From IMG/VR virus record IMGVR_UViG_2734482540_000012: a stretch of DNA of 5,350 nt; one strand, written 5' to 3'. Positions 1,737 through 5,350 of the stretch are shown here, one piece after another. The notes under the pieces were generated by a model. It was not told the DNA's origin. It saw only the letters and a list, made by a program, of their open reading frames with translations, and did no database searches. Origin of the DNA: a virus (lineage: Duplodnaviria; Heunggongvirae; Uroviricota; Caudoviricetes). Position 1 is the stretch's first letter, and the number at the start of each line of letters is the position of its first letter. The translations under genes and the position numbers were made by a program.

Positions 1737-1813
1737 TGGCGCGCTGTACTGGATTCGAACCAGTGACCGATTGCTTAGAAGGCAATTGCTCTGTCCGGCT
1801 GAGCTAACAACGC
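1737..1813 (-). tRNA. tRNA-Arg (anticodon UCU), CCA encoded
   Basis: Reverse complement reads GCGTTGT-TA-GCTC-AGCCGGACA-GAGC-A-ATTGC-CTTCTAA-GCAAT-CGGTC-ACTGG-TTCGAAT-CCAGT-ACAGCGC-G-CCA. 7-bp acceptor stem (one G.U), 4-bp D stem, 5-bp anticodon stem, loop CTTCTAA gives anticodon TCT, canonical TTCGAAT T-loop, encoded CCA. Resembles E. coli argU as I recall it; argN/argO-type phage tRNA. Confidence 0.9.
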
Positions 1814-1913: not shown

Positions 1914-1989
1914 TGGTGGCCCTTGCTGGATTTGAACCAGCGACCTGGCGATTATGAGTCGCTCGCTCTCACCACTGAGCTAAAGGGCC
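1914..1989 (-). tRNA. tRNA with CAU anticodon, most likely tRNA-Ile2 (lysidine, ileX/ileZ-like) rather than tRNA-Met
   Basis: Reverse complement reads GGCCCTT-TA-GCTC-AGTGGTGA-GAGC-G-AGCGA-CTCATAA-TCGCC-AGGTC-GCTGG-TTCAAAT-CCAGC-AAGGGCC-A-CCA. Full cloverleaf with one A.C mismatch at 27:43. Anticodon CAT. Very close to the E. coli ileX sequence as I recall it, and Stx-type lambdoid phages carry ileZ here. Ile versus Met cannot be settled from the anticodon alone. Confidence 0.85.
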
Positions 1990-2024: not shown

Positions 2025-2052
2025 CAATAAAAAACCCGCTCGGCGGCGGGTT
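2025..2052 (-). terminator. rho-independent terminator downstream of the Q-like gene (tR'-like)
   Basis: Minus-strand RNA would be AACCCGC-CGCCGA-GCGGG followed by UUUUUUAUUG. GC stem pairs 2035-2039 with 2046-2050 (extendable by two A.U pairs), and a 6-U run is encoded by plus-strand A's 2029-2034. Lies about 40 nt after the Q stop and about 35 nt before the tRNA-Ile 5' end. Confidence 0.55.
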
Positions 2053-2091
2053 GTAGAAACTCTTCTAACGTCAGGCATAAAACGCCCATAG

Positions 2092-2946
2092 TTATGACGA
2101 ATTTACCACAGATTCCGGAAAAATCAACCTAGTTACCTTTTTTAACTGCCGCTCAGCCCATGCTTCTTCAATATCAAACCGAGTCACCAGCGCATCATAG
2201 AATTTCTTAACTGTTTTTTCCCATGACGCGCGTGTTATCTGGTTTGTCACCTCGCATATAGCATTAAATGCCTCCGTTGATGGTAGTCTTTCATAGCCAC
2301 GACCACCACAACGCTGGCAGTCTCTGATAACAGGCATACCACGTTTTACCGACTCTTCACGATGAATGGCGACACCACGCCCACGGCAATCCTTACAGGC
2401 GGTGGAAACCTCACCCTTTCCGCCACACTCCGGACAGGCAACTTTTACCACCTCCCTGACTTTTTTCCATTCTTCCCAGTAAGACGGATACACACCTTTC
2501 GTACACTTTGCCCATACCGGCGGCTTACCATCCGGATACTGGACCTTGTTTGTAAAAACTACGCTTTCAATAAATTTTTCCCCATAGCAACAAGGGCACT
2601 GCTTTTTACTCGCTGCGCTGCGGGCATAATCCTCAAAAGCGTACGAAGCCATAATGCGCATCACTACCGGTTTTATTTCTGCCGGAAGTTTTCTCAACGC
2701 CGCCACACGATCGCACCGACTGAGTGCATAATCTGCCAGTAATTCTGTTGCCCGCGCCCTGTCATTCATACTGATGCCCATTTTCCCCAGGAACGCAGAA
2801 AACCCCATCTCAGCCCGATTCTGTGTCATGCCCTGCGCGGCCATCACATCAGTGATACTCAGCGCATCTTTTGACGTTGAGGCCGATGCATCGGTCAGGC
2901 AAGGGGATTTTGGGGAGTAGTATTTCGGTAAATCTTCCAGTTTCAT
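2092..2946 (-). CDS. putative late antiterminator Q-family protein with DnaJ-type CxxCxGxG zinc-finger repeats
   Basis: 284-aa ORF. Its ATG overlaps the rusA stop (ATGA). It sits immediately downstream of rusA and upstream of terminator and phage tRNAs, the canonical Q position. Contains CPCCYGEK, CPECGGKG, CKDCRGRG and CQRCGGRG. Family assignment from context and memory, no search. Confidence 0.7.
   Translation of the reverse strand: MKLEDLPKYYSPKSPCLTDASASTSKDALSITDVMAAQGMTQNRAEMGFSAFLGKMGISMNDRARATELLADYALSRCDRVAALRKLPAEIKPVVMRIMASYAFEDYARSAASKKQCPCCYGEKFIESVVFTNKVQYPDGKPPVWAKCTKGVYPSYWEEWKKVREVVKVACPECGGKGEVSTACKDCRGRGVAIHREESVKRGMPVIRDCQRCGGRGYERLPSTEAFNAICEVTNQITRASWEKTVKKFYDALVTRFDIEEAWAERQLKKVTRLIFPESVVNSS
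2100..2127 (-). promoter_or_regulatory. candidate late promoter (pR'-like) overlapping the 3' end of the Q-like gene
   Basis: Minus-strand TTGATT (plus 2122-2127), 16-nt spacer, TAAATT (plus 2100-2105). A start near the Q stop codon would give a short roughly 50-60 nt transcript ending at the 2025-2052 terminator, analogous to lambdoid pR'-qut-tR'. Pattern match only. Confidence 0.2.
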
Positions 2947-3317
2947 TTTTTGACCTGCTCTTCATGCATTATGGGGTAAATCTTCACCCCCAGACGTCCA
3001 CCAGATACTGGCTGACCACGAACGATATTGATTTCATCAAACTGCTCATCGTCCATTAACACTCCCGCATGTGTCAGTGCATCCAGTGGTGCTTTCAGGA
3101 TATTGTCCAGGTCACGACGGCGCTTATCCGGTGGCTCTGCAATAATCTTTATCGCCAGTCTTCCGGACAGGCTTAATTTCAGTCGCTGCTGACGGACAAT
3201 AAGCGCCACATCCCGGCGATAACGCTCACCGGCTTTTGATACAAAATATGTGTTGTCACGACGTCGCCAGTAAGTATTCACCGTCGGCGGATAAGGTAAA
3301 ATAAACTCATGGCGCAT
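2943..3317 (-). CDS. rusA: RusA-family Holliday junction resolvase (crossover junction endodeoxyribonuclease)
   Basis: 124 aa. Shares the LPxPPxxNxYxR N-terminal motif, the PDxRRRDLDNxxKAxxDALTxAG catalytic core and the C-terminal GGRL motif with E. coli RusA as I recall it. Start overlaps the upstream ORF stop (ATGA) and its stop overlaps the Q-like start. Confidence 0.9.
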   Translation of the reverse strand: MRHEFILPYPPTVNTYWRRRDNTYFVSKAGERYRRDVALIVRQQRLKLSLSGRLAIKIIAEPPDKRRRDLDNILKAPLDALTHAGVLMDDEQFDEINIVRGQPVSGGRLGVKIYPIMHEEQVKK

Positions 3318-3559
3318 CAGCGCAGCACCTCCTGCACCAGTTTTTCAAACTTTCCGACTCTGGTTTCCAGCTCTGCCACACAGTCCACCAGCTCATCTAC
3401 TGCTTTCTGTGCGCGATGCTTCGCCTGCATCAGTTCCCGAAGCGCGGGTACCATATCTTTACGGATAGCGTCTTTTGTTATGCCCGTTTTTTCGAGTTGT
3501 TCAGCATGACGCAGCATTTCCTGCGCGTGTTTACGCAATTGTTCAGGGGTAAAAGTCAT
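3317..3559 (-). CDS. hypothetical nin-region protein, predicted coiled-coil, translationally coupled to rusA
   Basis: Minus ORF; first ATG at 3559 (MTFTPEQLRKHAQEML...), with an alternative TTG at 3574. Stop TGA overlaps the rusA ATG. Charged, helical-looking sequence. No family recognised. Confidence 0.5.
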   Translation of the reverse strand: MTFTPEQLRKHAQEMLRHAEQLEKTGITKDAIRKDMVPALRELMQAKHRAQKAVDELVDCVAELETRVGKFEKLVQEVLR

Positions 3560-3694
3560 TGTCTGGTTGTTCAAAAGAAACGCTCCATCTTACTGCTGTC
3601 AGTTCGTTTATTACTGTATCTGCGCGGATTGCCGGGCTTCATGGGAGTGGAAAGCACCCGTGCACTTTCCTGGTCCACAGGCAGAAAATGTCCG

Positions 3695-3850
3695 TAGACT
3701 GGCCCCCTGAATCTCCAGACAACCAGTATCACTTAAATAAGTGATAGTCTTAATACTAGTTTTTAGACTAGTCATTGGAGTACAGATGATTGATGTCTTA
3801 GGGCCGGAGAAACGCAGACGGCGTACCACACAGGAAAAGATCGCAATTGT
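3695..3850 (+). mobile_element. IS2 left-end fragment (positions 1-156 of IS2, including IRL and the first 21 codons of insC)
   Basis: Begins TAGACTGGCCCCCTGAATCTCC, the IS2 left terminus as I recall it. All 156 bp are identical to 4361..4516 in this window. Identity stops abruptly after GCAATTGT at 3850. Confidence 0.85.
3786..3850 (+). pseudogene. insC: insC remnant (first ~21 codons of IS2 OrfA, then read-through into IS21-family sequence)
   Basis: ATG at 3786 is at the same offset (+91) from the IS2 terminus as the insC ATG at 4452 in the second copy. Encodes [22 protein letters not shown], then diverges. Confidence 0.6.
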
Positions 3851-4394
<544 letters not shown>

Positions 4395-4451
4395 TCACTT
4401 AAATAAGTGATAGTCTTAATACTAGTTTTTAGACTAGTCATTGGAGTACAG

Positions 4452-4817
4452 ATGATTGATGTCTTAGGGCCGGAGAAACGCAGACGGCGTACCACACAGG
4501 AAAAGATCGCAATTGTTCAGCAGAGCTTTGAACCGGGGATGACGGTCTCCCTCGTTGCCCGGCAACATGGTGTAGCAGCCAGCCAGTTATTTCTCTGGCG
4601 TAAGCAATACCAGGAAGGAAGTCTTACTGCTGTCGCCGCCGGAGAACAGGTTGTTCCTGCCTCTGAACTTGCTGCCGCCATGAAGCAGATTAAAGAACTC
4701 CAGCGCCTGCTCGGCAAGAAAACGATGGAAAATGAACTCCTCAAAGAAGCCGTTGAATATGGACGGGCAAAAAAGTGGATAGCGCACGCGCCCTTATTGC
4801 CCGGGGATGGGGAGTAA
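4452..4817 (+). CDS. insC: IS2 transposase OrfA (InsC), helix-turn-helix DNA-binding component
   Basis: ATG at 4452 ([41 protein letters not shown]...), stop TAA at 4815-4817. Matches IS2 InsC from memory. The ORF track begins earlier at an in-frame GTG (4407). Confidence 0.9.
4769..4775 (+). other. A AAA AAG slippery heptamer: programmed -1 ribosomal frameshift site giving the OrfAB (InsCD) fusion transposase
   Basis: AAAAAAG at 4769-4775 near the end of insC, where the insD frame opens (GTG at 4775). A6G motifs are the established frameshift signal of IS3-family elements. Confidence 0.6.
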
Positions 4818-5289
4818 GCTTAGTCAGCCGTTGTCTCCGGGTGTCGCGTGCGCAGTTGCACGTCATTCTCAGACGAACCGATGACTGGATGGATGGCCGC
4901 CGCAGTCGTCACACTGATGATACGGATGTGCTTCTCCGTATACACCATGTTATCGGAGAGCTGCCCACGTATGGTTATCGTCGGGTATGGGCGCTGCTTC
5001 GCAGACAGGCAGAACTTGATGGTATGCCTGCGATCAATGCCAAACATGTTTACCGGATCATGCGCCAGAATGCGCTGTTGCTTGAGCGAAAACCTGCTGT
5101 ACCGCCATCGAAACGGGCACATACAGGCAGAGTGGCCGTGAAAGAAAGCAATCAGCGATGGTGCTCTGACGGGTTCGAGTTCTGCTGTGATAACGGAGAG
5201 AGACTGCGTGTCACGTTCGCGCTGGACTGCTGTGATCGTGAGGCACTGCACTGGGCGGTGACTATCGGCGGCTTCAACAGTGAAACAGT
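4775..5289 (+). pseudogene. insD: IS2 transposase OrfB (InsD), 3'-truncated (about 171 of about 301 codons retained)
   Basis: Frame encodes [21 protein letters not shown]...[22 protein letters not shown] (track shows M at the GTG), then leaves IS2 at 5289 and ends SAPVI-stop at 5308. The InsD region downstream of ...NSETV (in my recollection of IS2, continuing ...QDVMLGAVERRF... and the DDE catalytic region) is absent from the window. Confidence 0.85.
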
Positions 5290-5350
5290 GTCAGCGCCAG
5301 TGATATAAGACGGTAATTCGCCATTTGGATTGTCCGCTCCACCCAACATG

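Follow-up and report, generated by a model that had tools for sequence, protein, structure and literature searches.

The minus-strand open reading frame (ORF) at positions 2092-2946 of the window, as the whole 5,350 nucleotide (nt) stretch of DNA from the Caudoviricetes record IMGVR_UViG_2734482540_000012 (IMG/VR) will be called here, encodes a 284 amino acid (aa) protein that very probably is a late-gene antiterminator Q of the lambda family (PF03589), present in a long form where an insert with two additional cysteine knuckles interrupts the sequence known from lambda Q (Q-lambda); its mode of action, and the second zinc ribbon that the insert may form, are proposed from comparison with Q-lambda and from structure models. 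The Pfam model Antiterm (PF03589) matches with 183.6 bits where the gathering score is 26.7 (E = 7e-55), thereby giving the first of the two outcomes, an antitermination-Q or a DnaJ match, that the original prediction had expected from such a search. For PHROG 127 ("anti-termination protein Q-like") the match extends over aa 1-273 (E = 1e-110), and a phmmer search of the PDB revealed lambda Q as the best sequence match (7ubm_Q, E = 1.8e-40). The phmmer alignment falls into two blocks, aa 1-113 corresponding to Q-lambda 1-113 and aa 182-273 corresponding to Q-lambda 116-207, and the identity to lambda Q (PDB 4MO1, 7UBJ-7UBN) is ~31% over the whole length. The normal end of the protein is R273 and the usual length is thus 273 aa, the 284 aa being peculiar to the allele in the window. 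When the alignment is transferred to the DNA the following map is obtained:

2092-2946, minus strand: Q gene, long form, 284-aa allele including the stop codon (ORF, PF03589, 7ubm_Q, 7ubn_Q, PHROG 127)
2767-2946, minus strand: aa 1-60, N-terminal segment, equivalent of the disordered torus-forming segment of Q-lambda (aligns with Q-lambda 1-60)
2608-2766, minus strand: aa 61-113, helical first half of the Q body (aligns with Q-lambda 61-113; model confidence 92-95)
2404-2607, minus strand: aa 114-181, insert of 68 aa with knuckles 1 and 2 at its ends (gap in the Q-lambda alignment between residues 113 and 116)
2293-2403, minus strand: aa 182-218, lambda-type arm (zinc ribbon) with knuckles 3 and 4 (aligned zinc ligands)
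2128-2292, minus strand: aa 219-273, second half of the body, helix-turn-helix and C-terminal helix (aligns with Q-lambda 153-207; model confidence 88-92)

The role of the N-terminal segment in Q-lambda is taken from Yin 2022 (PMC9388147). Model confidence is given as predicted local distance difference test score (pLDDT), and in the AlphaFold2 model, which the original prediction had suggested as a check, the mean is 73.7 with values of 85-95 in the body and below 50 for aa 1-28, the latter being expected since the N-terminus of Q-lambda is disordered. When this model was run through Foldseek only Q-lambda chains matched at E < 0.001; the best was 7ubn_Q (E = 1.9e-12, template modelling (TM) score to target 0.70), all of the eight best were Q-lambda chains (E from 1.9e-12 to 2.9e-06, TM to target 0.63-0.76) and the next match had an E value of 0.59.

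The residues with known functions in Q-lambda are kept as well, namely G39, S110-A112, G203, L268 and T272 together with the zinc ligands. L268 and T272 correspond to Q-lambda L202 and T206, which contact the flap-tip helix and whose substitution abolishes antitermination (PMC9388147), and S110-A111-A112 to residues that contact the zinc-binding domain of the RNA polymerase (RNAP) beta' subunit, for which the complete patch in Q-lambda consists of residues 110-112, 117 and 122-126. The two proteins hence have in common the N-terminal segment, a four-helix body with helix-turn-helix, a zinc-ribbon arm with identical ligand spacing, the C-terminal helix and the position of the gene, while the residues at the tip of the arm differ (SVKRG in the window, TELWG in lambda Q). 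The Q21 (PF06530) and Q82 (PF06323) families, accessions according to Yin 2022 (PMC9388147), gave no match among the Pfam matches at E values up to 0.1 and were rejected as identities of the protein. Of the suggestion that the protein may belong to a less-studied large Q family the size remains, the protein being a large form of Q, but not the separate family, as it is a full-length homologue of lambda Q.

The four CxxCxGxG motifs from which the original prediction started were found in the translation exactly as quoted, and they do lie in the middle third of the protein as claimed there, but (aa 117-217) also extend into the last third:

2575-2598, minus strand: knuckle 1, CPCCYGEK, aa 117-124
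2413-2436, minus strand: knuckle 2, CPECGGKG, aa 171-178
2374-2397, minus strand: knuckle 3, CKDCRGRG, aa 184-191
2296-2319, minus strand: knuckle 4, CQRCGGRG, aa 210-217

In an alignment of the window protein with 41 homologues of 54-98% identity six of the cysteines (C171, C174, C184, C187, C210 and C213) never vary, and another two (C117, C120) occur in at least 90% of the 42 sequences; because of this conservation the knuckles are no chance pattern. Lambda Q itself contains two perfect CxxCxGxG knuckles, CRDCHGTG and CGRCKGVG, the four cysteines of which hold the single zinc of the "arm", a type I shuffled zinc ribbon formed by residues 114-152 (PMC9388147). C184, C187, C210 and C213 align with the zinc ligands C118, C121, C144 and C147 of Q-lambda with the same 26-residue spacing, so that by this alignment knuckles 3 and 4 supply the zinc ligands already known from lambda Q. 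Since the zinc ribbon of lambda Q is built from two such knuckles the DnaJ-like motif is a trait of the family and nothing new here. The view that the protein resembles the two-zinc domain of DnaJ more than lambda Q therefore holds in so far as there are equivalents of two zinc sites and the motif is of DnaJ type, but not as a distinction from lambda Q, where the motif already occurs. A sub-clade of long-form Q proteins (ES18, RAH1, YeP2, FSL SP-016 and the loci L093-L095) has a third knuckle of CxC type, for example CQCNGKG or CRCRGRG, with otherwise the same spacing to the neighbouring knuckles.

The segment aa 114-181, bounded by knuckle 1 on one side and knuckle 2 on the other, has no counterpart in lambda and lies between the positions corresponding to Q-lambda residues 113 and 116. 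Both structure models predict two strands of 12 residues each (aa 125-136 and 159-170) between the two knuckles, and pairing of the strands into a hairpin would bring these knuckles together. The insert is thus most likely a long beta-hairpin which would form a second, independent zinc ribbon (knuckles 1 and 2) beside the lambda-type ribbon (knuckles 3 and 4). It splits the surface contacting the beta' zinc-binding domain into S110-A112 and A183/R188-V192; should the ends of the insert meet, this surface would stay intact and the new prong be placed beside it. The result would be a two-pronged arm, with the insert at the hinge between body and arm and the extra prong next to the surface that contacts the beta' zinc-binding domain. 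No description of the insert was found in the literature on YdfT/QuuQ, lambdoid zinc-containing Q proteins, PF03589 and the Q types of Shiga toxin (Stx) phages.

The position of the gene is that of a late antiterminator. Immediately upstream lies the gene of a RusA resolvase, at the end of the nin region, the stop codon of which overlaps the start of Q (ATGA, 2943-2946). The 3'end of the Q gene and the DNA following it contain a promoter/terminator cassette, succeeded by two tRNAs and, in intact relatives, by holin and lysis genes, in agreement with the Q slot assigned in the original prediction:

2943-3317, minus strand: RusA resolvase gene (PF05866, E = 1.8e-16)
2122-2127, minus strand: -35 box of pR', TTGATT (lambda pR' has TTGACT in the same register)
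2106-2121, minus strand: promoter spacer TTTCCGGAATCTGTGG, 16 nt, candidate Q-binding element (conserved in related loci; the lambda spacer is 17 nt)
2100-2105, minus strand: -10 box of pR', TAAATT, identical to that of lambda pR' and preceded by TGG (extended -10-like TGn)
2085-2093, minus strand: sigma-dependent pause element AACTATGGG, the -10-like hexamer AACTAT followed by GGG (AACGATGGG in lambda, equally far from the -10 box)
2025-2052, minus strand: intrinsic terminator, tR'-like (terminator scan: 7-bp stem with 5 G-C pairs, then a T-run; hairpin present in the minimum free energy fold)
1914-1989, minus strand: tRNA with CAT anticodon (ARAGORN, Met; Rfam tRNA, 72.5 bits; tRNA-Ile of lysidine type in the closest RefSeq genome, L001)
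1737-1813, minus strand: tRNA-Arg (TCT) (ARAGORN; Rfam, 68 bits)

The discriminator is 6 nt long, as in lambda (TGACTC), and from this arrangement transcription would start at ~2093 and pause at ~2077-2078. The terminator, which the original prediction had placed at the same positions, was recovered by the terminator scan. It is situated ~40 nt past the pause element, which gives a predicted terminated RNA of ~65 nt, whereas in lambda the corresponding distance is ~170 nt and the terminated RNA 194 nt. The fold of this short RNA is no more stable than that of shuffled sequence (z = -0.73), the terminator hairpin being its only notable feature. The tRNAs are located downstream of the terminator and would therefore belong to the Q-dependent unit; the ileZ/argO-type tRNAs of Stx phages are likewise found just downstream of a tR'-like terminator. 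In L001, the best genomic match, the gene order is Qin-like: dicB, ydfB/C, hokD, DUF968, RusA, Q, tRNAs, IraM, DUF1737 and holin.

A scan of IMG/VR for diverse loci, intended as a test of covariation between Q and the spacer, gave only close relatives (at least 93% identity); these served to follow conservation, and for more diverse loci 15 from phages and prophages in GenBank were used. Conservation was followed in 77 related IMG/VR loci that match a pattern fixing TTGA[TC]T and TTTT[CT]C[CG]GAA, in the -35 box and the first ten bases of the spacer. In these 77 loci the -35 box is the same in all, the pattern having left only its one free position open to vary. The stretch TCTGTGG-TAAATT, outside the search pattern, is nearly invariant, while the discriminator and the loop of the terminator vary; the stem-loop and T-run of the terminator are kept even though the loop and several stem positions differ. 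Within the pause element A2, A5, T6 and GGG hardly vary among related alleles, deviations being confined to single loci. The layout of the cassette recurs behind long-form Q in 10 other phages or prophages. The same cassette follows the gene for long-form Q in mEp237, a Stx2c phage, RAH1, YeP2, FSL SP-016 and ydfT of E. coli K-12, and in ES18, Bp96115, Midgardsormr38, Pm34, Fostie and 611R1 the Q gene is succeeded by variant versions. In mEp010 the DNA next to the end of Q has other ORFs and gave no pR'-like cassette, and this phage was left out of the comparison.

The spacer, of which TTCCGGAA is a part, is the candidate Q-binding element (QBE). It contains the motif TTCC(G/C)GAA(T/A)CTG, which is common to mEp237 and Midgardsormr38, with Q identities of 54% and 48%, and it occupies the position where the lambda QBE is found, in the promoter spacer (Yin 2022, PMC9388147), although the sequence differs between the window and lambda. 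It had been stated that the way in which the protein engages the late promoter was not obvious from sequence, but this does not hold, since a lambda-like pR', the conserved spacer, the pause element and the terminator are situated right at the 3'end of the gene; by homology the mechanism is most likely that of Q-lambda as described in PMC9388147. The helix-turn-helix body and the zinc-ribbon arm would bind the QBE in the spacer of pR' (2100-2127), and RNAP starting from ~2093 would be held in a pause when sigma-70 binds once more, now to the -10-like AACTAT-GGG element. The paused complex would then be loaded with Q, for which sigma region 4, the flap-tip helix and the zinc-binding domain of beta' provide the contacts. 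In the presence of NusA the ~45 N-terminal residues of Q would shape a nozzle where the RNA leaves the polymerase (RNA-exit channel), the polymerase modified in this way being expected to pass the terminator at 2025-2052 and to continue into the tRNAs and the late genes.

Three other ways of understanding the gene have to be weighed against this, two of which arise from the likeness of the knuckles to DnaJ. According to the more far-reaching one, also raised in the original prediction, a DnaJ-like chaperone or some other regulator that is not Q has taken over the Q position. DnaJ-type matches do exist, PF00684 (DnaJ_CXXCXGXG) giving 29.2 bits at aa 171-218 (E = 1.2e-06) and TIGR02349 28 bits at aa 163-218, and one homologue as well as one phage record bear DnaJ-like names. 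Both models however score below their cut-offs (32.7 and 377.2 bits, respectively) and cover only knuckles of a kind that lambda Q also has, neither a J-domain nor a DnaJ C-terminal domain was found with Pfam at E values up to 0.1, and the homology to Q-lambda (PF03589, 7ubm_Q, 7ubn_Q) extends over the full length and takes in the N-terminal nozzle segment as well as the body with its helix-turn-helix and the C-terminal helix. A DnaJ protein or another regulator in the Q slot was hence rejected, and we regard it as extremely improbable. The names concerned, "chaperone protein DnaJ" for a Serratia quinivorans homologue (P0033) and "COG0484 DnaJ-class molecular chaperone" for Q of Salmonella phage FSL SP-016, were assigned automatically, owing to the knuckle motif, and are misannotations. 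A narrower version accepts the protein as Q and takes the four repeats as a DnaJ-type domain with nested zinc sites (knuckles 1 with 4 and 2 with 3), so that the zinc site of Q-lambda would have been rebuilt and the shape of the arm, and possibly the partner, would differ. The motif does occur four times, the two DnaJ models do align with aa 171-218 and 163-218, the DnaJ-like zinc protein anti-TRAP matches aa 167-195 (knuckles 2 and 3), and the 13-residue spacing of these two knuckles resembles that of anti-TRAP, in which adjacent knuckles share one zinc. With the cysteine-rich domain of DnaJ and with anti-TRAP the window protein thus has the repeated CxxCxGxG in common, along with a weak local similarity in sequence and fold. 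DnaJ in addition has a J-domain, a G/F region and C-terminal substrate-binding domains, all of which the window protein lacks, its knuckles being embedded in the Q-lambda fold. The knuckle spacings of 54, 13 and 26 residues are also unlike those of DnaJ, which in E. coli are 17, 22 and 14. The segment from knuckle 3 to knuckle 4 corresponds to Q-lambda residue for residue with identical spacing, the four cysteines of Q-lambda hold one zinc, knuckles 1 and 2 come and go together with the insert, and the two long predicted strands between them would unite just these two knuckles. We regard nested zinc sites as improbable and two separate ribbons as the most likely arrangement.

A different alternative concerns not the family but the copy in the window, which might be a decaying, non-functional remnant from which no active Q is made. 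Relative to L001 and mEp460 the window copy has lost 8 bp (AGGTAACA, lying between AGGT repeats) directly behind codon 273, as a pairwise DNA alignment showed, whereby the AGG-TAA stop context is removed and the ORF continues through the -35 box, the spacer and the -10 box to a TAA at the start site:

2127-2131, minus strand: junction of the 8-bp deletion (DNA alignment with L001; junction-pattern counts)
2092-2127, minus strand: tail LIFPESVVNSS, 11 aa and stop codon (translation of the -35 box, spacer and -10 box of pR')

The tail extends a C-terminus whose counterpart in Q-lambda, the last 13 residues (195-207), refolds and contacts the flap-tip helix (PMC9388147) and includes the L202 and T206 positions mentioned above, and the window copy may for this reason be impaired. 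The DNA upstream of RusA is broken, with an ORF that is truncated, a fragment of IS21 istB and the left ends of two IS2 copies, which makes expression and activity in this strain uncertain, and the downstream DUF1737 gene is a fragment also in the closest relative. On the other hand, the core of 273 aa is intact and 98.9% identical to Q of mEp460, the promoter, pause element and terminator are untouched in the window, and an additional C-terminal tail need not abolish function. The deletion allele moreover persists: 3 out of 80 IMG/VR loci carry it, as do several complete genomes. Loss of function in this copy is a serious possibility, even if we lean slightly away from it. For the reading of the gene as a working long-form Q the following points weigh on the negative side: the tail is non-native and absent from all of the 41 aligned homologues; the early region upstream of RusA has been replaced by IS2 and IS21 fragments; both structure predictions are only moderate, with mean pLDDT values of 73.7 and 70.2 and with 55-65 in the middle of the insert; and the literature gives no experiment on a long-form Q, this protein included. 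The identification as a lambda-family antiterminator of the long form nevertheless remains the very probable one.

Annotation as an antitermination protein exists already; the protein is very common and belongs to a known family. A search of 5.8 billion proteins gave 631 relatives, and among the best 120 of these four CxxC motifs are present in 110, the typical length is 260-277 aa, the hosts span the Enterobacterales and most of the records are called "antitermination protein". When representatives clustered at 50% identity were searched exhaustively the family proved small, with 235 matches, 29 of which contain both flanks of the insert site. Among these 29 there are 22 with an insert, 28-77 aa in length and in 19 cases with a CxxC-type knuckle at each end, and seven that have the short form of lambda, a "PG" linker taking the place of the insert in six. 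The long form is consequently the majority form of the family and lambda Q represents a short, minority form. Viable phages with the long form include mEp460 (98.9% identity), mEp237 (54%), ES18 (gp73) and Stx2c-converting phages, and the gene together with the promoter cassette is present, at a coverage of at least 80%, in 2478 out of 5426 complete E. coli genomes (~46%).

The nearest relatives, Q of mEp460 (VUF53909.1) and the "antitermination protein" WP_000762885.1, are 98.9% identical over 273 aa and have an identical promoter, spacer, -10 box and terminator. They stop at R273 whereas the window allele, lacking the 8 bp, is 11 codons longer; a G16C substitution separates them from the window protein, and the pause hexamer is AACTAT in the window but AATGAT in mEp460. 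More distant is YdfT/QuuQ of E. coli K-12 (b1559, Qin cryptic prophage), which has the same four knuckles (at 113, 148, 161 and 187) and shares the long-form architecture, yet is only 40% identical to the window protein and has 35 aa between knuckles 1 and 2 compared to 54. YdfT/QuuQ and the Q of Stx2c phages are located in the same kind of neighbourhood (hokD, DUF968/ydfU, dicB, ydfB/C) and are followed by the same cassette of pR', CAACGATGGG and terminator. The promoter spacer of YdfT/QuuQ differs from that of the window, which suggests a different QBE specificity.

When analysing the rest of the window several further features appeared. In the moron region downstream of the tRNAs a strong match to the Rfam small RNA STnc100 (RF02076) was found at 851-1040 on the minus strand (132 bits against a gathering score of 47). 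An AT-rich ORF of 111 aa at 490-825, on the opposite (plus) strand, is a paralogue of the IraM-family anti-adapters (NF007393, E = 4.7e-48; IraM in L001) and constitutes prophage cargo at the site that stx occupies in Stx phages. On the minus strand a 117-aa ORF at 1273-1626 matches PHROG 2873 over 108 aa (E = 3.8e-70); in L001 no coding sequence is annotated in the corresponding 500-bp gap (7139-7637). Also on the minus strand, 56-244 holds a DUF1737 fragment (PF08410, E = 1.5e-15) and 1106-1237 a 43-aa ORF whose counterpart in L001 is annotated as DUF3927, both of a kind that lambdoid prophages of E. coli typically carry between Q and the genes for lysis. Upstream of RusA an 85-aa ORF (3317-3574) represents only the C-terminal part of a 204-aa PHROG 2565 protein and is adjoined by insertion sequence (IS) debris at 3575-5350, where an exact 156-bp direct repeat (3695-3850 and 4361-4516) corresponds to the two IS2 left ends. 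These bracket the IS21 istB fragment (3909-4388, minus strand) and a longer copy of IS2 follows.

As the mechanism of the family has been solved for lambda Q there is little left to discover about the protein as such. The insert on the other hand falls inside the patch that contacts the beta' zinc-binding domain, at a mechanistically sensitive hinge. It is possible, though rather unlikely, that the second zinc ribbon serves there as an extra contact module and that long-form Q loads onto the paused complex in a way unlike that of Q-lambda. If so, this could mean, for example, an extra contact to RNAP or to upstream DNA, an arm that is fixed instead of swinging, or an altered dependence on NusA, and lambda Q would then be a reduced and atypical representative of its own family.

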